Notes under the pieces: model-generated
Databases searched by the model: none
Told to the model about the DNA's origin: nothing
Seen by the model: only the letters and a program-made list of their open reading frames with translations
Source of the DNA: Schmidtea polychroa
Lineage: Eukaryota
DNA: 64,000 nucleotides
NCBI GenBank assembly: GCA_044892525.1
Contig: CM097885.1
Location: 23,004,001 to 23,068,000 of the forward strand
Direction: 5' to 3'
Shown: one piece after another, positions 1 to 56,168 of the stretch
Layout of the letters: the number at the start of each line of letters is the position of its first letter
How positions within the stretch are numbered: position 1 is the stretch's first letter
Position numbers and translations under genes: made by a program

Positions 1-27016
<27,016 letters not shown>

Positions 27017-32063: not shown

Positions 32064-38432
<6,369 letters not shown>

Positions 38433-40339: not shown

Positions 40340-42954
40340 TTAATATTATTCATATTGTTGTTTTCCATATTAAAATGTGTAAGTAAATTTTATTACTTCT
40401 TTTGAATTCTAATTATTTGTATAAAGGTGATAATTTAATGGTCACCCTCGACCGGAGGGAGATAAACTCACGGTAGTCCTCTCTATTGTTTTACCTCTTA
40501 CCCTACGCTGTCCTGTGAATAGTTCCATATTTGGTACATATCAATTCTGTAGTTAATGCCAATTATAAAATCATCAAAATTCGTGCTGTACAATATTTAT
40601 GTTGATATTTCATAATAAGTAAGAAGATATGGAGAATATTTCTGGCAATCAATTAATACTTTATAATTTAAGATTTTTATTTCTTTCACAAATAAAAATG
40701 GATGTTGTAGGTGTTATGAGTGATCTTATTTATGTTTATTATATTATATATACTCAAAGCTAGATGTTATGTGCTAGTTCTATATGTAGTTACTATGTAT
40801 TATTAATGTTTTTGTAGAATATTGTAGAACTCAAAAGAGTTTCCGTTAAAAGAACTGTATTGGGACAGCTGGGGTGCTTGTATGTTGATCTTTTAGTAAA
40901 ACATAAATTACAAATTATTATAAAATATGAAAAATTAATTTATCTTTAACAAAGTTTGTTTATTATAAAATATAACAACCTTCAATTTGGGAAGTTGAAG
41001 ATTTTGATATAGGATCTCTTTGGGTGAATGTTATTATTGCGATATTACAGGAAATTTTGATAATTAGTGTTGGAATTTTCTGAGAATTAATCGAATAATA
41101 ATAGAATCTGTTTTGGACTGATGCCCTTTCTTGGATTTTCTTTTATTTCTTATATTTCTAATCGAATATGACTTTTTTAAATATTCCGTAATTTAGGAGA
41201 TTTTAGATAGTTTTTTAATTTTTAATTTAATTTTTTTATTTGTTGATTATTCCATAACGATAATTTGCTATAGTTAATTATCGCTATATTTTTTTATACG
41301 CCGTACGCGATAACAAAAATAACCATTCATTATAAATCTTAAACACAAATAAAAAAATATAACACTACACTACAGTATATTATGTTATTACAATATGTTG
41401 GACGCAATTAAATTCAAATATTCTTCCAACATTTATTTATTAATTAGTAATTAACTAATTATATTTGTGATCAATAATTACTACGTCTCAGTTGTTTAAA
41501 TTCTCTTGTATTTTCTAAAAATTTAAACAATTAAGGCGTGGTAATTATTGATATTGATGTAATTATTGATCACAAATATAATTACTTGATTTAAAATAAT
41601 TTAATATAATTTAATATCAATTTTAATATACAAATCAACACAAATAGTTTTTTCAACTAGCTGATCACACTTATTACTTTTAAACTATATTATTTTTAAT
41701 AAAGAGTTTTGAAACTCGTTACGCAATATAAACTCAATTTTAAGGAAGATGAGAATAAAAGTAGTTAACCATATAGTCCAGATTATTTTAAAAATTTAAA
41801 GACACAATTTCGAAAGATGTGGTACAAATTATTCGACTTAACACTTGTCAAAGTTATTATTACCTTCTATTGCTAATTTTCAATGTATAAAAATATACTA
41901 ATTCAAAATATGTTAAAGTTTATAAATGACCTTAAACAAAACCTTTAGGATAAAAGGTTTGGAACAAATATTTTATCAGATCGTGTTTTGACACTGCCCA
42001 GTAATTTGCAATACGCTACAATTAATAATATCAGTAAAATCCTGTATGTTTTGTTAACCATTGATCTGTTTTTACTTTCGTTTAACATTTCATTTATTTT
42101 TATAGTAGTGAATAGTAAGGACTCCAGGACACTTTCAAGGTCATCCCAATGTCCAGATCAAATATAGGTCAATCGAATCATTTTTTTTTAATTAACATTT
42201 TATTTAATTACTTCTTTTTAATTTTTTTTTTTTTTTTTTTTTTTTTTCATTTTAATTTTATTAATTAATTATTTTATTATGTTTTATTTTAATTTATTAC
42301 ATTTAATTAATTTATTTAGTTTATTAATATTTTATTTTAATTACTTACGCTATTTAATTATTATTATTATTATTATTATTTTTTTTTTTTTTATTTTATT
42401 TTTTTTTTTTAATTAATTTATTTATTTTTTAATTTTATTTAATTACTTCTATTTATTTTTTTTTTCTTTTTAATTTTCTTAATTAATTATTTTATTATGC
42501 TTTTATTTTAGTATTATTTTATTATTTTATTATTTTATTTATTATTATTATTTTTTTTTTTTTTTTTTTTTTTTTTATTTTTTATTTTATTTTTTATTTT
42601 TTTTTTTTTTAATTTTACATTTACATTATATTCTAACAAGAGGTAAATTATAACGATAATATTTCAATTTGAATAAAATTTTAATTAGTAATTATTCAAT
42701 TTGAATAAATTTTAATTAGAAATTATTTAATTTATTATAAAATAAAACGCTGAGTTAATTTTAGATAAACTGGATATTAATATTTCGGAAAAAATAAATA
42801 AATAAATAAAATAAACACAAAAATAATATTTCTTACTTGAAACTAATTATCTAAATTAATTGGACAAATGAATAATTAAATGATAAAACACATTTTAATT
42901 AACTAAGTCAAACAATTCACAATATATATTTTATTATTCACATAAATTTAATTG

Positions 42955-45900
42955 TTAAAGTGCTTGTTTCGATTTGCATTCATTTCTAGACATAGCAGTT
43001 GCAATATGCATTTGGCGAATCTTATAGTGACCGTAGGCATAACTTTCATTACAATTGTACCAATACCTTTTATCGTCCAAACATTGGAGAGCTCGTTTTT
43101 CTGTCATGAAAGTATACAACTGATGATTGACACTTCCTATTCTTTTTTGTGGGATGCTCACTGTTCCACCATCAGTATACACTTTTTTATAGGCTTCATG
43201 TGTAAGATTAGAGTTTGTAAGTCTTATTCCTTTGGCTTTTAGAGTGTTTTTATCGCCTTGGAGTGAGTAGCACTTGGGTCGAAGAAACACCCATTCTTTA
43301 TATTGATTTCCTTTATTCTCATCCTTGAATTTCCCGATTACCGAACAAATTTTATCTGAGAACAATGGATCAGTCACTGGATAATTTGAAGTATCTAGGA
43401 GCCCATCGGCAATCATTTTTGGATATAGTTGTAAGCGTAAATCTACATTTTTACACTCTAAAAAGAAGGAATCTGTGTCACCGGCTACGATATTAATTTG
43501 ACAATTGAATTCTTCTCTATAACTCTGTAGTTCTTTATATTGAAACTGGTACATGCGAAGTTTGGATAAATCAAGTACGGTTTGTCCAATATACATTGGT
43601 CTATCTAAACACACAATTTCCTTATTGAGTATAACAGCAATGAGATCATCCGCAATCTTGATGCTACGACGAAACATAGGATTACTACAATAAGTTATCA
43701 ATCTTTTGCTTTTGCTGCATAATCTCAAATTTATACGTTTCTTCAAGTTTTCCACAGTTTTACCGTATAAACTGTTGTTCTTTAACTTATAATAATCTCG
43801 CTGAAACGAATCTGTACTAGCTGCTCTCATTTTGGTATTGTAATCAATATAACCTTTGAAAATAGCCACTTGCTTGAATTCTACAGCACGATTAACTTTT
43901 GTGACTTTTGCGCCGTAACTCAACCACTCTGTCAAAACTCTACCATTAACTACATAGTTTTTCTTAGGCTCATGAGTTAACAACAGCTTTTCAACTTTAC
44001 TACCAGGTGGATAACAAAGCTCAGGAGCTATAGGTAAATCATCTAGTTTACCTTGTATACTATCAGGAATGACGATGTCAACCTCTAGAACATATCCAAG
44101 ATCTCCATCAAACTTATCCCCATTTGCACATCTTTCAACAATACCATTCATTTCAGTCTGATCATTTATCCATCTAAATTCACCAACAGGAAGTTTTTGC
44201 GACAGCGCCCATCCATATAAATTATTAACATCTAGGTATGACATTTGTGTTGATTCATCAGCTTCAACATGATGTTTGTTGATAAATGTCATTCCACCAC
44301 GAATACCAGCTTCAAATAAACGGTAAAGCTCTGGATCTTGAATAAGTTCTACTGGTTCAGGTAACTGTTTAATAGCTGATGCCCAACTTAATCCGGGTAT
44401 GGAAACAAACGATAGAGCCTCAAGTCCATCTTCGTCAAATGTTTTTTCTCTGAAAGCTTCAAAAACATCGGCCAACAGAAAAACATCCAACTTGAGATAT
44501 ACTAGCATGTAATCTAGCAGTGTCTCACAGTTGTATTGTCGCCAGATTCGATTTGCATGTATATAATCTTCTTGACTAACTCCCTCCCAAATCGGTGGTA
44601 ATTCTGTTATTGACTGTAAAACATCCATTGATGTAGCCATATCATAAGGAAATATGCCTTTACCAGTTATTAAATGCGAATTGAAAATCTTTGAAGTAAG
44701 TGGAAGACGTGGCAAGTTTTTTGATAAATTTGCCAAGCTGCTATTTAAAAATTGTAAAGAATCAATGAATCTAATTCTTCTGCCTTTCGATGTCGCTGTA
44801 AGTGTGAGAAACTTTTCTGTTGATTGAGGAATAACAATTAAATTCCAATCGGGGAATTTTCCAATTGCATATTTTAATATATGATGAATGTCATATCCAC
44901 GAAGATTATGAAATACAACAGGTAAAGACGGATTGATTCTTCTAGCCAAATTACAATCTTGACACGCTGCTCCGAGATATTGACCAGTAAAATGATCATG
45001 ATCTCGAACAGGTATATTGATAATCTTTTTACAAAGGTAGCAATGAGTTTGAGTCGTGAATTCTTCCTGCTGTTCCCAAGTGAGTTCCATCATTTCCTTT
45101 GATCCATTAATTTTATACCACGGATAAACTATGTCTGTAGCTATATCATCCAATGCTTGTATGAACTGAATGATACAGTTTTTCCCAACAAATGTTTCAT
45201 TTCGGATCGGACAACCTTGATGAAGAAGCACAAATTCAGATGCAATCGGCTCATGTTTTTGGAAGTGTTTGTCATCTAGAGGTAATATCGATTCAAAGTC
45301 CGCGTAGACAACAAACTGCTGTTTTATAGTTTTACTCCAGTCTTTAAATTCGATATATTTATTCTCTGGCATTGAGTATAGAGTCGTACGCTCCACATTC
45401 TTCCTACAAAGACCTATATGTCTTTCAAAAGCAGGACGTTTTTGAAACCCATGAAGACATGTATGACACCAATGTGATTGGATTCTGACTCCTTCTACTC
45501 TATCTCTGTAATTCAGCAGTCGATCGAGATTAGTTACAGCCAAAAAATGATAATTTAATTCTAAAATTTAGTTAATATTTTTAATGATTAAAAGAAATAT
45601 TACCTTCTTCAATCAATAGGAGATATATCCGAGATCCCGTCGAAGTACTTCTATATACCAAGTCAACGAACGGATTCTTGAAAATATCATTAGTTTTTTG
45701 TTTAATTGGATCTTTATTATATTTGAGAACATTGATCGCTAGATTTGGATTCATTGCTTCAAATTGGCAAATGTTAACCAACTTCATCGGAAACCATTCA
45801 AATTTCCATTTTAAGTCTTAAAAACAAATTTCAATGATATATGACATTATATATATATATATTACCACTTAAATTATATTTCATTACTCTTTCTCTGTGA

Positions 45901-46938
45901 TGTTTTATGTCATCATAATGTAATACGGCCAGTATGCTATATAAAAAGCAGAATTGATCATTATTTTGAACATTAACTAAAGCCTGACAGTTTTTCAGGT
46001 AATTTGGCGTTTTAATGTAACTTGAACCTAAGTAAATATCTTGATTTATATATATAATAATGTAAATAAACTTACCAGATACATGTATTATGTCTGATAA
46101 TTTAGTTAAAATCATAGTAACTTCTAATATTTTATGAATTCTCCACCCACTACTTTGTTGAGTGTATTTTTCCAACTTTTCTTTTAATTTTTCAATTCCA
46201 TCATTAATAAATGAAGATGACATTGTAATTGCTTTATTCGACAAACACCATTTTTTAATTTCACCATCCTCTTTGATAAACTCTGCACAAAGTCCAAATT
46301 GGATTTTTACTGTACCCATTCGTTGAATATGATCTTCTATTTCTTTGATGAGACAATCTGGAACAACAATGTCAGGAGAATTAATTGCAGATACATCGCT
46401 TGTCAATTCAACACGAGAACCATTTAAGTCAGACTCCCGACGTGGACACAATTGTATGTTAGAGTCTCCATTTCCGTAAAATATTGACTTTCGTTTTGTG
46501 GTGCCAGAGTTTTGTCTAACTATATTTATAATTAATATTAAACAACTTAAATAACATAACTTGTAACATATTCTTTAATCTGCTTAGGATCGTATGATGT
46601 ATTCATTTTCGATTGTACTATAAAAAATTAATAATTGTTAATAGTAGAAAGAGTATTACTTTTAGTGATCATCCTGCTCTTCGTTTCTTCGAATCTTCTA
46701 AGATGGTGTCCGTGTTGTCGTACAAACATTAACCACCTACCTGGTGATATAATGAGACATTCCGGACATATGTAACCCGATAAGGTAGAGTCATTTATCT
46801 TGAAATATGATGATGTAACTGATTTACAGTTCTCCACATCTTCATGACTTTCGGCAATACAAAATTTATATAAACTGCATCCGTTCACTAAAAGAAAATA
46901 ATCATTAATATTAGATAGAGAATAAAAATTTATTCACT
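42955..46938 (-). CDS. polB: Protein-primed family-B DNA polymerase, left copy, spliced (predicted 1236 aa)
   Basis: Mirror of the right copy; exons 46938, 46887-46660, 46617-46561, 46519-46076, 46027-45866, 45816-45604, 45560-42955. One amino-acid difference seen (IQGKL versus IQDKL). Confidence 0.9.
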
Positions 46939-47374
46939 TATATAAGTTAAATTAAAAGTTTAAATGACAAACATTTGAAAAGTTACTGCTTATATATTAC
47001 ACATGATTACATTCTGACCAATCAAAATCAAGGAAGGAGTAGGAAAAATAAATGCATTACGTTGCAGTATTTTAAAACTTAAATTTTAAAACACATTTTA
47101 ATGATAAAGTTGACATTCGACATTTTCATAATAATTTAATAAAAAATAATGCGATGAACCCACAAAGTAATATCATTTTTCATCAAATTGCAAAACAGTA
47201 ATAACGTTTTCATAAATTGTAACAAAGTAATAACATATTTCAGATAAATTTTCAACAGTTGTAAAATATTTAAGCAAATTGTAACAAGATTAGAAAATAT
47301 TACAACAAAGTAGTAACATATTTCAGAAAATTTCAACAAAGTTGTAAAATATTTATCAAATTGTAACTAAAATA

Positions 47375-47800
47375 ATAAAAATATTGCAACAAAGTAATAA
47401 AATAATGATGTTAATTGGGACAAATCAATACATTATTTCGAAGACGGACAACAAATTAAAAAGAATATTGTAATAAATTGTGAAGTCTTTCAGTAAATTA
47501 CAACAAAGTAATAACATATTTCGGAAATATTTCACCAGATGTAAAATATTTAAGCAAATTGTTATAAGATTATAAAAATATTGCAACAAAGTAATAAAAT
47601 AATGATGTTAATTGGGACAAATCAATACATTATTTCGAAGACGGACAACAAATTAAAAAGAATATTGTAATAAATTGTGAAGTCTTTCAGTAAATTACAA
47701 CAAAGTAATAACATATTTCGGAAATATTTCACCAGATGTAAAATATTTAAGCAAATTGTTATAAGATTATAAAAATATTGCAACAAAGTAATAAAATAAT
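47375..47800. repeat. 197-bp tandem duplication built on AACAAAGTAATAA subrepeats (mirrored at ~49200-49630)
   Basis: gatgttaattgggac occurs at 47407 and 47604; degenerate subrepeats extend to ~47160. Confidence 0.85.
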
Positions 47801-47819
47801 ACAACATTTTAAACTCTAG

Positions 47820-48570
47820 ATCAATCCATTTTATAGAAAATTAAATTTTATCTCTATAATATATGAATAAATATACAAGGAAATTACGTTAGCTGTATGA
47901 AAAATACAAATTTATCGTAAAAACATGTGTGTGTATTACACACAACATACGTGACATAATTTTTAATCAAGCTATTTTATAGAAAATTAAATTTTATCTA
48001 TATAATATATGAATAAATATACAAGGAAATTACGTTAACTGTATGAAAAATACAAATTTATCATAAAAAACATGTGTATATTATACACAAAACAAGATAC
48101 ATAATTTCTAATCAATCCATTTTATAGAAAATTAAATTTTATCTCTATAATATATGAATAAAATCCTAAGAACATTACGTTAACTATATGAAAAATACAA
48201 ATTTATCGTAAAAACATGTGTGTATTACACAAAACATACGAGACATAAATTTTAATCAATCCATTTTATAGAAAATTAAATTTTATCTATATATTATATG
48301 AATAAAATCCTAAGAACATTACGTTAACTATATGAAAAATACAAATTTATCGTAAAAACATGTGTGTATTACACACAACATACGAGACATAAATTTTAAT
48401 CAATCCATTTTATAGAAAATTAAATTTTATCTATATAATATATGAATAAAAATCCAAGAAAATTACGTTAACCGCGCGAAAATACAAATTTATCGTAAAA
48501 ACATGTGTGTATTACACACAAAGCGACAAACTAAAGTTTTAATTGAGCCATTTTGTAGAGAATTAAATTC
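47820..48570. repeat. ~145-bp tandem array (five units plus a partial) in the left arm; one unit plus a partial in the right arm (~49010-49180)
   Basis: TTTT(A/G)TAGA(A/G)AATTAAATT at 47829, 47975, 48120, 48264, 48408 and 48551. Confidence 0.9.
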
Positions 48571-48669
48571 TGCCTATACATTGTTACACTTAAATCCCAA
48601 TCGAACAAAGAGAAAAGAGAGAAAAAGAGAGAGAAAAAACAGTAGAGTAGGGTATTGTGTGGACCCGGG

Positions 48670-48911
48670 TGAAACCTTTGCATAGATCTCTTCAAGACCT
48701 TACGAATGATGTGAATAAAATATAATTAAAATTTTAAAATACCGCAACGTAATATAAATTTAAAAAAAAAAAAATTTAAAAAAAAAAAAATTTAAAAAAA
48801 AAAAATTTAAAAAAAAAATTAAAAAAAAAAAAAAAAAAAAAATACCCCCCGGGGAGGAGGTATGACTCATATGTCTTTGTGACGTCATCGATGACGTCAT
48901 ATGTCTTTGTT
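48670..48911. other. Unique central spacer (loop) of the palindrome
   Basis: Bounded on both sides by CCCGGG; contains A-tracts, CCCCCCGGGG, TGACTCA and the perfect 20-bp palindrome TGACGTCATCGATGACGTCA (48880-48899). Confidence 0.9.
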
Positions 48912-49948
48912 CCCGGGTCCACACAATACCCTACTCTACTGTTTTTTCTCTCTCTTTTTCTCTCTTTTCTCTTTGTTCGATTGGGATTTAAGTGTAACAA
49001 TGTATAGGCAGAATTTAATTCTCTACAAAATGGCTCAATTAAAACTTTAGTTTGTCGCTTTGTGTGTAATACACACATGTTTTTACGATAAATTTGTATT
49101 TTCGCGCGGTTAACGTAATTTTCTTGGATTTTTATTCATATATTATAGAGATAAAATTTAATTTTCTATAAAATGGATTGATCTAGAGTTTAAAATGTTG
49201 TATTATTTTATTACTTTGTTGCAATATTTTTATAATCTTATAACAATTTGCTTAAATATTTTACATCTGGTGAAATATTTCCGAAATATGTTATTACTTT
49301 GTTGTAATTTACTGAAAGACTTCACAATTTATTACAATATTCTTTTTAATTTGTTGTCCGTCTTCGAAATAATGTATTGATTTGTCCCAATTAACATCAT
49401 TATTTTATTACTTTGTTGCAATATTTTTATAATCTTATAACAATTTGCTTAAATATTTTACATCTGGTGAAATATTTCCGAAATATGTTATTACTTTGTT
49501 GTAATTTACTGAAAGACTTCACAATTTATTACAATATTCTTTTTAATTTGTTGTCCGTCTTCGAAATAATGTATTGATTTGTCCCAATTAACATCATTAT
49601 TTTATTACTTTGTTGCAATATTTTTATTATTTTAGTTACAATTTGATAAATATTTTACAACTTTGTTGAAATTTTCTGAAATATGTTACTACTTTGTTGT
49701 AATATTTTCTAATCTTGTTACAATTTGCTTAAATATTTTACAACTGTTGAAAATTTATCTGAAATATGTTATTACTTTGTTACAATTTATGAAAACGTTA
49801 TTACTGTTTTGCAATTTGATGAAAAATGATATTACTTTGTGGGTTCATCGCATTATTTTTTATTAAATTATTATGAAAATGTCGAATGTCAACTTTATCA
49901 TTAAAATGTGTTTTAAAATTTAAGTTTTAAAATACTGCAACGTAATGC

Positions 49949-50085
49949 ATTTATTTTTCCTACTCCTTCCTTGATTTTGATTGGTCAGAATATATTTATT
50001 TTTCCTACCCCTTCCTTGATTTTGATTGGTCAGAATGTAATCATGTGTAATATATAAGCAGTAACTTTTCAAATGTTTGTCATTT
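49949..50085 (+). promoter_or_regulatory. Putative Pol II promoter of right polB (mirrored at ~46960-47055 for the left copy)
   Basis: Reverse CCAAT boxes (ATTGG at 49980 and 50025), TATATAAG at 50051, and Inr-like TCATT at 50080, about 30 bp downstream of the TATA. Confidence 0.6.
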
Positions 50086-50108
50086 AAACTTTTAATTTAA
50101 CTTATATA

Positions 50109-53100
50109 AGTGAATAAATTTTTATTCTCTATCTAATATTAATGATTATTTTCTTTTAGTGAACGGATGCAGTTTATATAAATTTTGTATTGCCGAAAGT
50201 CATGAAGATGTGGAGAACTGTAAATCAGTTACATCATCATATTTCAAGATAAATGACTCTACCTTATCGGGTTACATATGTCCGGAATGTCTCATTATAT
50301 CACCAGGTAGGTGGTTAATGTTTGTACGACAACACGGACACCATCTTAGAAGATTCGAAGAAACGAAGAGCAGGATGATCACTAAAAGTAATACTCTTTC
50401 TACTATTAACAATTATTAATTTTTTATAGTACAATCGAAAATGAATACATCATACGATCCTAAGCAGATTAAAGAATATGTTACAAGTTATGTTATTTAA
50501 GTTGTTTAATATTAATTATAAATATAGTTAGACAAAACTCTGGCACCACAAAACGAAAGTCAATATTTTACGGAAATGGAGACTCTAACATACAATTGTG
50601 TCCACGTCGGGAGTCTGACTTAAATGGTTCTCGTGTTGAATTGACAAGCGATGTATCTGCAATTAATTCTCCTGACATTGTTGTTCCAGATTGTCTCATC
50701 AAAGAAATAGAAGATCATATTCAACGAATGGGTACAGTAAAAATCCAATTTGGACTTTGTGCAGAGTTTATCAAAGAGGATGGTGAAATTAAAAAATGGT
50801 GTTTGTCGAATAAAGCAATTACAATGTCATCTTCATTTATTAATGATGGAATTGAAAAATTAAAAGAAAAGTTGGAAAAATACACTCAACAAAGTAGTGG
50901 GTGGAGAATTCATAAAATATTAGAAGTTACTATGATTTTAACTAAATTATCAGACATAATACATGTATCTGGTAAGTTTATTTACATTATTATATATATA
51001 AATCAAGATATTTACTTAGGTTCAAGTTACATTAAAACGCCAAATTACCTGAAAAACTGTCAGGCTTTAGTTAATGTTCAAAATAATGATCAATTCTGCT
51101 TTTTATATAGCATACTGGCCGTATTACATTATGATGACATAAAACATCACAGAGAAAGAGTAATGAAATATAATTTAAGTGGTAATATATATATATATAA
51201 TGTCATATATCATTGAAATTTGTTTTTAAGACTTAAAATGGAAATTTGAATGGTTTCCGATGAAGTTGGTTAACATTTGCCAATTTGAAGCAATGAATCC
51301 AAATCTAGCGATCAATGTTCTCAAATATAATAAAGATCCAATTAAACAAAAAACTAATGATATTTTCAAGAATCCGTTCGTTGACTTGGTATATAGAAGT
51401 ACTTCGACGGGATCTCGGATATATCTCCTATTGATTGAAGAAGGTAATATTTCTTTTAATCATTAAAAATATTAACTAAATTTTAGAATTAAATTATCAT
51501 TTTTTGGCTGTAACTAATCTCGATCGACTGCTGAATTACAGAGATAGAGTAGAAGGAGTCAGAATCCAATCACATTGGTGTCATACATGTCTTCATGGGT
51601 TTCAAAAACGTCCTGCTTTTGAAAGACATATAGGTCTTTGTAGGAAGAATGTGGAGCGTACGACTCTATACTCAATGCCAGAGAATAAATATATCGAATT
51701 TAAAGACTGGAGTAAAACTATAAAACAGCAGTTTGTTGTCTACGCGGACTTTGAATCGATATTACCTCTAGATGACAAACACTTCCAAAAACATGAGCCG
51801 ATTGCATCTGAATTTGTGCTTCTTCATCAAGGTTGTCCGATCCGAAATGAAACATTTGTTGGGAAAAACTGTATCATTCAGTTCATACAAGCATTGGATG
51901 ATATAGCTACAGACATAGTTTATCCGTGGTATAAAATTAATGGATCAAAGGAAATGATGGAACTCACTTGGGAACAGCAGGAAGAATTCACGACTCAAAC
52001 TCATTGCTACCTTTGTAAAAAGATTATCAATATACCTGTTCGAGATCATGATCATTTTACTGGTCAATATCTCGGAGCAGCGTGTCAAGATTGTAATTTG
52101 GCTAGAAGAATCAATCCGTCTTTACCTGTTGTATTTCATAATCTTCGTGGATATGACATTCATCATATATTAAAATATGCAATTGGAAAATTCCCCGATT
52201 GGAATTTAATTGTTATTCCTCAATCAACAGAAAAGTTTCTCACACTTACAGCGACATCGAAAGGCAGAAGAATTAGATTCATTGATTCTTTACAATTTTT
52301 AAATAGCAGCTTGGCAAATTTATCAAAAAACTTGCCACGTCTTCCACTTACTTCAAAGATTTTCAATTCGCATTTAATAACTGGTAAAGGCATATTTCCT
52401 TATGATATGGCTACATCAATGGATGTTTTACAGTCAATAACAGAATTACCACCGATTTGGGAGGGAGTTAGTCAAGAAGATTATATACATGCAAATCGAA
52501 TCTGGCGACAATACAACTGTGAGACACTGCTAGATTACATGCTAGTATATCTCAAGTTGGATGTTTTTCTGTTGGCCGATGTTTTTGAAGCTTTCAGAGA
52601 AAAAACATTTGACGAAGATGGACTTGAGGCTCTATCGTTTGTTTCCATACCCGGATTAAGTTGGGCATCAGCTATTAAACAGTTACCTGAACCAGTAGAA
52701 CTTATTCAAGATCCAGAGCTTTACCGTTTATTTGAAGCTGGTATTCGTGGTGGAATGACATTTATCAACAAACATCATGTTGAAGCTGATGAATCAACAC
52801 AAATGTCATACCTAGATGTTAATAATTTATATGGATGGGCGCTGTCGCAAAAACTTCCTGTTGGTGAATTTAGATGGATAAATGATCAGACTGAAATGAA
52901 TGGTATTGTTGAAAGATGTGCAAATGGGGATAAGTTTGATGGAGATCTTGGATATGTTCTAGAGGTTGACATCGTCATTCCTGATAGTATACAAGATAAA
53001 CTAGATGATTTACCTATAGCTCCTGAGCTTTGTTATCCACCTGGTAGTAAAGTTGAAAAGCTGTTGTTAACTCATGAGCCTAAGAAAAACTATGTAGTTA

Positions 53101-54092
53101 ATGGTAGAGTTTTGACAGAGTGGTTGAGTTACGGCGCAAAAGTCACAAAAGTTAATCGTGCTGTAGAATTCAAGCAAGTGGCTATTTTCAAAGGTTATAT
53201 TGATTACAATACCAAAATGAGAGCAGCTAGTACAGATTCGTTTCAGCGAGATTATTATAAGTTAAAGAACAACAGTTTATACGGTAAAACTGTGGAAAAC
53301 TTGAAGAAACGTATAAATTTGAGATTATGCAGCAAAAGCAAAAGATTGATAACTTATTGTAGTAATCCTATGTTTCGTCGTAGCATCAAGATTGCGGATG
53401 ATCTCATTGCTGTTATACTCAATAAGGAAATTGTGTGTTTAGATAGACCAATGTATATTGGACAAACCGTACTTGATTTATCCAAACTTCGCATGTACCA
53501 GTTTCAATATAAAGAACTACAGAGTTATAGAGAAGAATTCAATTGTCAAATTAATATCGTAGCCGGTGACACAGATTCCTTCTTTTTAGAGTGTAAAAAT
53601 GTAGATTTACGCTTACAACTATATCCAAAAATGATTGCCGATGGGCTCCTAGATACTTCAAATTATCCAGTGACTGATCCATTGTTCTCAGATAAAATTT
53701 GTTCGGTAATCGGGAAATTCAAGGATGAGAATAAAGGAAATCAATATAAAGAATGGGTGTTTCTTCGACCCAAGTGCTACTCACTCCAAGGCGATAAAAA
53801 CACTCTAAAAGCCAAAGGAATAAGACTTACAAACTCTAATCTTACACATGAAGCCTATAAAAAAGTGTATACTGATGGTGGAACAGTGAGCATCCCACAA
53901 AAAAGAATAGGAAGTGTCAATCATCAGTTGTATACTTTCATGACAGAAAAACGAGCTCTCCAATGTTTGGACGATAAAAGGTATTGGTACAATTGTAATG
54001 AAAGTTATGCCTACGGTCACTATAAGATTCGCCAAATGCATATTGCAACTGCTATGTCTAGAAATGAATGCAAATCGAAACAAGCACTTTAA
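50109..54092 (+). CDS. polB: Protein-primed family-B DNA polymerase, right copy, spliced (predicted 1236 aa)
   Basis: Exons 50109, 50160-50387, 50430-50486, 50528-50971, 51020-51181, 51231-51443, 51487-54092 join in frame (3711 nt). Motifs: SSGW, GSSYIKTP, VNVQNNDQFCF, C2HC finger, ExoI YADFES, endonuclease-VII-like CxxC..RDHDH.TG..LGAAC..CNL, ExoII FHNLRGYD, FIDS, KGIFPY, ExoIII YLKLDV, RGG, Pol A YLDVNNLYG, Pol B KLKNNSLYGK, Pol C GDTDS, PKCY, KAKG. Confidence 0.92.
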
Positions 54093-56168
54093 CAATTAAA
54101 TTTATGTGAATAATAAAATATATATTGTGAATTGTTTGACTTAGTTAATTAAAATGTGTTTTATCATTTAATTATTCATTTGTCCAATTAATTTAGATAA
54201 TTAGTTTCAAGTAAGAAATATTATTTTTGTGTTTATTTTATTTATTTATTTATTTTTTCCGAAATATTAATATCCAGTTTATCTAAAATTAACTCAGCGT
54301 TTTATTTTATAATAAATTAAATAATTTCTAATTAAAATTTATTCAAATTGAATAATTACTAATTAAAATTTTATTCAAATTGAAATATTATCGTTATAAT
54401 TTACCTCTTGTTAGAATATAATGTAAATGTAAAATTAAAAAAAAAAAAATAAAAAAAAAAATAAAAATAAAAAAAAAAAAATAAAAAAAAATAATAATAA
54501 TAAATAAAATAATAAAATAATAAAATAATACTAAAATAAAAGCATAATAAAATAATTAATTAAGAAAATTAAAAAGAAAAAAAAAATAAATAGAAGTAAT
54601 TAAATAAAATTAAAAAATAAATAAATTAATTAAAAAAAAAAAAATAAAATAAAAAAAAAAAATAATAATAATGATAATAATAATTAAATAGCGTAAGTAA
54701 TTAAAATAAAATATTAATAAACTAAATAAATTAATTAAATGTAATAAATTAAAATAAAACATAATAAAATAATTAATTAATAAAATTAAAATGAAAAAAA
54801 AAAAAAAAAAAAAAAAAAAATTAAAAAGAAGTAATTAAATAAAATGTTAATTAAAAAAAAATGATTCGATTGACCTATATTTGATCTGGACATTGGGATG
54901 ACCTTGAAAGTGTCCTGGAGTCCTTACTATTCACTACTTTTTATTGCGACTAATCAAATACTTTTTTCTTGTTTGACAAACTTTTGACATTGCCTTCATT
55001 AAGATTATGTTACACATTCATCCACAGTCACAATGAAAATACATGAAATGCCTTAAGATTACAATTCATAATAAAAGCATCGATATATTACTGATTTATA
55101 GTCTTCAAGCTCTCTTTTTAATAAATTCAATGGAAAAAATAATCAGTTATGAAATTGGAAAAAAAGGTTCTTATAATATTAGAAACAGGGAAGAAGAAAA
55201 AACAGGAAAATAAAACTTGTTTGGTTAAAATATATATTTTGCAAAGGAAATCGCACTAAGAATTTATTTCTGAATACATCTTATTGATAAGTCTTTGTAA
55301 AGCTTCTGATAAATAAATAAACTAAAACTTCATATAATAAATTTTATTTAAATAAATTCTGCAATATGCATTCTTCAATACTATGCGAATCTGTTTAATA
55401 AAGATTTTCATGAAGAATTGCATTTGTTCTCAAATTGATTCGTATTTCTTAACTTCCGAAATTCTTTTTTTTCTAATTCGAGCATAGTTCTCTTCCCTGA
55501 TATCTTTTTGTATTATTAAAGCAATCCTCTCTTCTTCATTATTTTAAAGATAATTTAGGAAGTTTTTTTATATTTTTAATAAAATATTTGTTTTAACCAT
55601 ATAAAGAAGAATATTACACGTAAATCTAAATATTTTAATGGAGAATCATAATTTTAGTTTGATGATAATATTATTTAAAGTATTAGGGGCTCTGCCCCTG
55701 TTCGCTTCGCTTCAACAACCCCGTTAGAACGTGGGGTTAATGTTAAAGTTAATATCCAGAGAATTCTTGGACAGGAGTAAGATTCAGTTTATTAATATGT
55801 TTACATAACTATGATAAAAGATAATAGCATTAACCGTTATTAAGTAATATAGAACGATAAGTACAAAAGAATAAATACTTCATAAAAAAAATATAAAAAA
55901 AAATTAAATAAAATAAAATAAAAAAAGGTAAAATTCGGATAGAGGGGACCCTTAGCTTTTTATATATAGAGAGATGCCTGGGCGACCAACTGCTCATGAG
56001 CCGTAGGCAGCTTTCGGCGGAATAATTTTATGCGCCTTTGAGCATAATATCATTTTTATATTAATATTTAAATTTTTATATTTATGAAAAGAAATTTATT
56101 TTTTTGCGATTCATTTTATTTTAATATTTTTAAAATTGGATCCCGCATTGTTTGCTGTTGGTCAGGCC

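Follow-up and report, generated by a model that had tools for sequence, protein, structure and literature searches.

The stretch of DNA analysed here, hereafter the window, covers 64,000 nt of Schmidtea polychroa (assembly GCA_044892525.1, contig CM097885.1, positions 23,004,001 to 23,068,000 of the forward strand) and contains a palindromic derivative of a Polinton/Maverick element, each arm of which carries a gene for a virus-type, protein-primed family B polymerase (pPolB). On the right arm, seven exons are separated by six introns with GT..AG ends and an A+T content of 83-88% (Table 1), exons 2 to 6 measuring 228, 57, 444, 162 and 213 nt, i.e. each divisible by 3. All six junctions are phase 1, none of the split codons is a stop and the first of them is the initiator ATG; the spliced frame encodes 1236 aa with a single terminal stop, the last intron lying at codon 369, so that the introns are clustered in the first 30% of the gene. 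Most of this architecture had been proposed in the original prediction, made from the letters alone, and the coordinates and lengths of the six introns, their position after the first codon base (by frame arithmetic, with A/TG at the start), the continuous stop-free polymerase frame and the confinement of the introns to the N-terminal third were all confirmed. The claimed resemblance to the short introns of the host holds as well, 46 of 76 introns in host dynein loci measuring 41-59 nt. Not mentioned at the time was an identical gene model in mirror image on the left arm, with an 870-aa open reading frame (ORF) at 42955-45567 and six introns and exons sized as in locus L002.

Table 1. Features of the palindromic element and of its polymerase genes (window positions; TP, terminal protein; UTR, untranslated region).
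Feature	Positions	Strand	Remark
Left target-site duplication TTTTAT	42098..42103	+	
Palindromic polymerase-only Polinton/Maverick derivative, 12.8 kb	42104..54938	.	
Mirror seven-exon pPolB gene, left arm	42955..46938	-	start placed by arm symmetry
144-nt tandem repeats, left arm (fewer on right arm)	47775..48640	.	
Spacer between arms, 242 nt, conserved family centre	48670..48911	.	
Predicted Pol II promoter: inverted CCAAT 49980, 50025; TATA-like 50051-50058; initiator-like TCATTT 50080-50085	49980..50085	+	putative function
Exon 1 coding base (start-codon base 1; remainder of exon 1 = predicted 5' UTR)	50109..50109	+	homologue N-termini align from residue 2
Intron 1, 50 nt, phase 1, within start codon	50110..50159	+	47-52 nt in other copies
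Exon 2, Cys/His-rich, zinc-finger-like N-terminal module (label suggested by motif)	50160..50387	+	23-33% identity to homologue N-termini
Intron 2, 42 nt, phase 1, contains in-frame stop	50388..50429	+	41-45 nt in other copies
Exon 3, short variable linker	50430..50486	+	
Intron 3, 41 nt, phase 1	50487..50527	+	
Exon 4, predicted terminal-protein domain	50528..50971	+	residues 1-131 of homologue model
Intron 4, 48 nt, phase 1, conserved Gly codon, TP/vOTU border	50972..51019	+	45-115 nt in other copies; same site in L111, L112
Exon 5, vOTU domain start including predicted catalytic Cys (51097-51099)	51020..51181	+	invariant C158
Intron 5, 49 nt, phase 1, TA microsatellite; not in L111, L112	51182..51230	+	45-140 nt in near copies, 15-222 nt in diverged copies
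Exon 6, vOTU domain core	51231..51443	+	
Intron 6, 43 nt, phase 1	51444..51486	+	same site in L111, L112; one contig end matches spliced junction
Exon 7: vOTU His (51498-51500), second Cys/His cluster, EndoVII-like insert, exonuclease and polymerase	51487..54092	+	
Right target-site duplication TTTTAT	54939..54944	+	

The spliced product, with an X placed at every junction, was aligned with 48 uninterrupted homologues, namely 7 genomic frames and 41 proteins of at least 1090 aa among the first 60 of the 120 matches listed. Junctions 4 and 6 are free of gaps in 46 of these homologues and differ by one residue in the other 2, and junction 5 shows gaps of 0-2 residues in all 48. The alignment of the proteins P0002, P0010 and P0023 with the window product runs end to end; besides, the split start codon is supported, since P0010, P0015 and P0023 align with the product residue 2 to residue 2. 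Regarding the copies in the genome, exon lengths are unaltered in 30 of 32 near copies, intron 5 spanning 45-140 nt, and 20 diverged copies show 45 distinct indels in 273 intron nt vs 14 in the 1104 nt of exons 2-6, counts in which microsatellites inflate the intron figure and alignment noise inflates both, several of these copies being broken. Indels occur in all six introns across the 52 genomic copies, and exons 2-6 compared with subfamily L049 give proportions of synonymous (pS) and nonsynonymous (pN) differences of 0.051 and 0.018, respectively, from small counts. The ends, host-like size and host-like composition are those expected of spliceosomal (U2-type) introns, and the gaps against uninterrupted homologues and the tolerance of indels agree with them, strongly for introns 4-6, through the start codon for intron 1 and more weakly for introns 2 and 3; in all likelihood, the six introns are real. 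A candidate loss of intron 1, at L154, is actually a promoter deletion. Exon 4 alone as a query, a weak test, retrieved no longer homologue, and the search of viral contigs found no relative.

Exon 7 matches the family B polymerase PF03175 well over the cut-off (E 4e-31), as expected for the protein-primed polymerase of a Polinton, and PF02945 below the cut-off (E 3e-4). For the N-terminal part, a structure model of the uninterrupted homologue L057 (69 sequences, pLDDT 85) was mapped onto window exons 4-7 by BLASTP: residues 9-126 of the model adopt a little-finger/PAD-like fold (Z 7.8, rmsd 2.5, 92 aligned) and residues 137-271 an OTU fold (Z 7.3, rmsd 2.9, 92 aligned, with many OTU rows), both Z scores being middling, and its best viral fold match is Drosophila-associated adintovirus 2 (E 3e-23). 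With the PF03175 match and the adintovirus match of the homologue, the earlier assignment to polymerases of the Polinton/adintovirus kind is borne out. As judged from the L057 model, TP and vOTU domains precede the polymerase: exon 4 corresponds to the TP and intron 4 to the linker, and the vOTU takes up exons 5 and 6 together with the beginning of exon 7, its predicted catalytic Cys falling in exon 5 and its His four residues inside exon 7. The order is that of the TP-vOTU-EXO-PALM plan, for which cleavage by the vOTU at its boundary with the TP has been proposed (10.1101/2024.03.18.585575), and polymerases of this class have been termed Alpha (PMC8502044). The homologue alignment contains the invariant residues S107, C158, H262, C290, C293, H306 and C310, of which S107, the exon 4 Ser at 50896-50898, is a candidate priming residue.

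The element as a whole bears the hallmarks of Mavericks, i.e. (AGT)2...(ACT)2 ends and a 6-bp target-site duplication (PMC8097293): it begins with AGTAGT, ends with ACTACT and is flanked by such a duplication. Its arms (42104-47053 and 49994-54938) are 99.7% complementary, with more inverted segments up to 48669/48912 and 197-nt duplications farther out on both arms. These inverted repeats of about 6 kb occupy nearly the whole element, vs 100-1500 bp for the terminal inverted repeats of Polintons (10.1101/2023.08.22.554363), and no frame of at least 120 aa other than the polymerase frames was found within 42104-54938, integrase, packaging ATPase, protease and capsid genes being missing. In other words, the element is a non-autonomous Polinton derivative, not a complete member, although it acts in the manner of a Polinton replication module. 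The 781-Mb genome contains many copies of the element, frequently arranged head to head in pairs, and at least 150 copies of exon 4; none of the 150 exon-4 matches scored falls in a frame exceeding 347 aa, so that none of these is uninterrupted. The spacer centre with its inverted flanks is likewise matched at dozens of genomic loci (40 candidates scored). The target duplication, the many independent paired loci and the differences between arms led to the rejection of an assembly artefact as the cause of the palindrome. Arms within one element differ by 0-5 bases (9 pairs) and arms of different elements by 2-44, with a median of 11 (36 comparisons), as would be expected if one arm is copied from the other. 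Head-to-head palindromes are also found in a sister family with an uninterrupted polymerase (L050, L051, L052, L060), which means that the fold-back form has had more than one origin in this genome. Of note, the spacer contains a perfect palindrome with two half sites resembling the cAMP response element (48878-48899) and also matches L058 571-796, beside another Polinton family.

Regarding a complete parent, the DNA upstream of 18 seemingly unpaired copies consists of partial palindromes, deletions or truncations, and 11 ORFs scanned there, a subset of those present, gave no integrase or A32 ATPase match. The terminal 79 nt of the element are not shared by any complete Polinton family examined, and in the ATPase- and integrase-bearing families L058 and L059 the polymerase is only 25-27% identical. 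No parent was identified in this material, which does not prove that none exists.

Comparison of intron positions across the family had been suggested as a check. Two of seven metagenome loci reach the intron region, namely L111 and L112, which are 55-56% identical to the window in exon 7; both have GT-AG phase-1 introns of 43-45 nt whose sites coincide exactly with positions 4 and 6, and both are uninterrupted at position 5. In L112, one more phase-1 intron lies near position 3, and the leader is short and lacks the zinc finger. The promoter-like motif with inverted CCAAT boxes (window 49967-49990) recurs upstream of L112 (40-110) with 77% identity over 61 nt, the proteins of the two elements being 55% identical, and a related motif stands upstream of L050-L052 and L056 as well. 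A long adaptation to the host spliceosome had been proposed for the window gene; what can be retained is that long residence in spliceosome-rich hosts is plausible, introns 4 and 6 recurring about 1 substitution per site away.

Resting on the gene structure, the anatomy of the element, the collinearity with uninterrupted homologues and the two intron positions common to distant relatives, the reading favoured here is that six host-type introns are spliced out constitutively to give one predicted polyprotein of 1236 aa, for which we put the probability at roughly 0.78. Each arm would be transcribed outward from the CCAAT/TATA promoter at its inner end, and the host spliceosome would remove the six introns and thereby make the start codon. 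The resulting polyprotein, composed of zinc finger, terminal protein, vOTU protease and exonuclease-polymerase, would prime and copy the element, the vOTU rather than splicing freeing the terminal protein, as in the model of 10.1101/2024.03.18.585575. Copying may proceed via a fold-back intermediate, which would keep the arms alike, and the integrase might be lent in trans by a complete Polinton.

Several observations weigh against this reading. The available contigs come from four of 14 listed sequencing runs, none of them recorded as RNA; the four are only guessed to be RNA and may represent DNA or pre-messenger RNA; among their listed records no joint was found for any of the six introns, and five contigs (X1 records 1-2, X2 records 9-10, X4 record 23) run unspliced through introns 1-3. 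In favour of splicing, the support from these runs is thin: one contig end of run X1 has 13 letters of exon 6 joined straight to exon 7, which fits the spliced junction of intron 6. Junctions 2 and 3 fall in a variable linker, where fewer homologues provide coverage and gaps reach 12 residues, and introns 2 and 3 rest mainly on frame arithmetic and the comparison of copies. Six phase-1 introns out of six have a probability of 0.004-0.025 for junctions after AG, (A or T)G or (A or T)(A or G), and a lower one still for introns 1-3, which lie between A and T. In a tree of 22 rows (LG+G4), a clade uniting the window with L111/L112 is rejected (approximately unbiased test, p 0.001). Lastly, none of the loci examined turned out to be a helper whose ends match, the ends of L057 and L053 not having been located.

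In that tree, the window family sits within a set of single-ORF proteins and, as it does not form one clade with L111/L112, the shared introns need several losses, parallel gain, or single-ORF records that derive from spliced RNA. All six introns could accordingly be recent gains in the window family, the match with L111/L112 reflecting parallel gain at strong protosplice sites. The nearest proteins, P0001 and P0002, and the sisters of L111/L112, P0015 and P0023, are indeed single ORFs, and the genomic sister families are uninterrupted across junctions 4-6. Introns 1-3 also have boundary repeats of 4-6 nt, offset by one base (50109-50114, 50387-50390, 50486-50490) and absent from introns 4-6, which could reflect their mode of origin. 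Nevertheless, this explanation requires two exact coincidences of the same phase; P0001, P0002, P0015 and P0023 stand on contigs of 3.9-4.5 kb that hardly exceed their genes and could be spliced RNA, and P0005, P0008, P0009 and P0014, on contigs of 13-27 kb, have their first residues a short way past junctions 4-6, which is what an interrupted gene would show. Recent gain of all six is therefore rather unlikely, and in any case concerns origin only, being compatible with constitutive splicing of the window gene. Introns 4 and 6 are considerably more probably old in the lineage than gained twice, and introns 1, 2, 3 and 5 are probably lineage-specific. An introner origin was rejected, the six introns not being alike (pairwise z -1.5 to 2.3 vs shuffles, branch-like motif included).

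Introns are also met in related genes. The integrase of a sister Polinton family has a 42-nt phase-1 GT-AG intron in a catalytic-Asp motif (L080 8272-8313, L079 8599-8640); an identical 11-nt sequence stands at each of its junctions, a hallmark of introns gained through duplication or the repair of a break. An adenain-type protease gene (PF00770) has a 40-nt phase-2 intron five bases past the ATG (L057 2942-2981, L053 2615-2654). The L057 polymerase shows an apparent phase-1 acceptor of its own at the first zinc-finger Cys (about 4890-4905), the donor of which was not located, so the polymerase of the sister family is not wholly intron-free; an apparent upstream leader with a repeat (3600-3900) is present too.

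The original prediction had also remarked that intron 4 can be retained in frame, and from this position a regulated switch may be imagined, in which retention would give a free terminal protein and the spliced RNA the full polymerase. Intron 4 does lie in the linker between the little-finger-like and OTU domains of the model and is kept in L111 and L112; in all eight copies and relatives chosen for a frame-shifting intron 4, retention leads to a stop within 9-32 codons; one X1 contig (record 3) extends into the intron; and TP/polymerase splits arose repeatedly among polintons and adenoviruses (10.1101/2024.03.18.585575). The outcome is, however, not conserved, the length of intron 4 being divisible by 3 in 30 of the 32 near copies but in 11 of the 20 diverged ones (not in the other 9) and amounting to about 43 nt in L111 and L112, and the window copy with intron 4 retained meets no stop before intron 5. 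Moreover, the vOTU Cys and His are intact, so that proteolysis can already free the TP, and the site is a strong protosplice context, i.e. a ready-made phase-1 site in a conserved Ser-Gly pair, with CAG/G in L111/L112, which explains the position without function. The stop-free reading in the window stands, as an incidental property, and a TP-only product is possible in some lineages, but a switch is improbable. The same low credence applies to the wider idea that it represents a splicing-level intermediate toward the adenovirus TP/polymerase split, within a spliceosome-dependent Polinton lineage whose minimal palindromic derivative outspread its parents.

As for the uniform phase, it had been suggested that symmetric phase-1 exons would allow in-frame skipping, and more generally they may be seen as modules for skipping or shuffling of the N-terminal leader. 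Exons 2, 3 and 4 match zinc finger, linker and terminal protein, L112 combines a short leader with a third phase-1 intron, mobile domains favour phase-1 flanks (PMC3488318), and of the ten independent intron positions counted in these elements nine are phase 1, one being deduced from its acceptor only and the phase-2 protease intron being the exception. Yet the OTU fold is interrupted by both intron 5 and intron 6, its predicted catalytic Cys being encoded in exon 5 and its His in exon 7, so exons 5 and 6 are not modules, and skipping either would destroy the protease. In relatives, these domains are encoded without introns at the positions in question, the sister integrase intron is phase 1 inside a catalytic motif and the protease intron is phase 2, and no exon-skipped form occurs among the listed records of the four runs. 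The modular explanation is decidedly improbable, and skipping as a general design is not supported.

A host habit is no better an answer: the 76 introns in 20 dynein loci (paralogue alignment) are distributed 54/10/12 over phases 0/1/2, a rough baseline from one gene family with partly shared positions, and with only 10 of them in phase 1 this cause was rejected. Phase 0 is generally in excess, and (A or C)AG followed by G is the protosplice site (PMC3488318). In polymerase coding sequences, 40-54% of AG or (A or T)G sites are phase 1; an A/T-ending codon followed by a G-starting codon places AG or TG there. Composition accounts for part of the phase-1 excess, but neither for the residue nor for the 5' clustering. 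Most likely, the excess is a by-product of where introns arise or persist in A/T-rich codons, together with small numbers, rather than an exon-skipping design.

That the upstream exons are decayed or unrelated and that expression is limited to exon 7, with translation beginning internally, is very improbable: the RNA-guess contigs are mostly unspliced, but end-to-end homology, conserved exon lengths and introns shared with relatives argue otherwise, and exon 7 by itself would lack the terminal protein and the vOTU Cys.

Other sequences in the window or at the copies deserve a mention. The window contains hAT transposase frames (PF05699) at 7629-9563 (+) and 32981-33784 (-), as well as a 12-nt A/T-rich tandem array at 817-1481, which is the cause of three spurious long frames. 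Elsewhere, Polinton cargo genes encode a Bcl-2 family protein and a TATA-binding protein (L041 7173-7628, 8289-8756; L079 6358-6870). A long terminal repeat-type element with gag, protease and a Monjiviricetes-type fusion glycoprotein adjoins a palindrome copy (L066 171-5386), and an uninterrupted 347-aa calcineurin-like phosphoesterase frame, possibly a retrocopy, adjoins a truncated element copy (L075 4208-5248).

A spreading family whose polymerase start requires splicing indicates that elements of this virus-like kind can come to rely completely on the spliceosome of their host. As its relatives include both interrupted and uninterrupted genes, its copies number in the hundreds and two intron positions recur in distant lineages, it provides a compact natural test of intron gain and loss, and may provide one too of whether promoter-near introns help foreign DNA escape silencing, in view of intron-sensing silencing (for example PMC7618375). 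Surveys based on ORFs will miss or truncate such intron-bearing elements.

Copy-back or snap-back defective genomes and fold-back transposons have one end duplicated in mirror image and their internal genes lost. The window element resembles these genomes and the non-autonomous transposons of this kind in its mirrored end region, lost internal genes and near-identical arms, and differs from them in keeping an intact polymerase on both arms and the hallmarks of Polinton integration. In adenovirus E2B, as in the window gene, the start codon stands on a tiny spliced first exon, which in E2B is shared by TP and polymerase; no alternative acceptor use of the E2B kind was seen in the window gene. 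Both polymerases are protein-primed, but TP and polymerase are separate in adenoviruses (10.1101/2024.03.18.585575), whereas the window gene has one frame, an intact vOTU and no conserved outcome of intron 4 retention.

Among the closest known systems is the 'Alpha' adintovirus pPolB of Polintons/Mavericks, shared features being PF03175, N-terminal TP and OTU domains, (AGT)2 ends and the 6-bp duplication (PMC8097293, PMC8502044, 10.1101/2024.03.18.585575); unlike a complete Polinton, the window element lacks integrase, ATPase, protease and capsid, and its long inverted repeats enclose the gene. No report of spliceosomal introns in an animal Polinton polymerase was found in the portions of the literature consulted, including passages of 10.1101/2023.08.22.554363, PMC12220804 and PMC6431247, and exons of this kind may already be annotated in the Repbase entries for flatworm Polintons. 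The core ORFs of intact vertebrate Mavericks are reported to be intron-free (PMC8097293), in contrast to the six introns of the window polymerase. Spliceosomal introns in Polinton-like elements are known from the introner-bearing maverick-polinton-like proviruses of dinoflagellates, in which the introners are mobile repeats mostly inserted after integration (PMC11957031); the window introns, by contrast, are dissimilar to each other and fixed in a spreading family, two of them being common to distant relatives.

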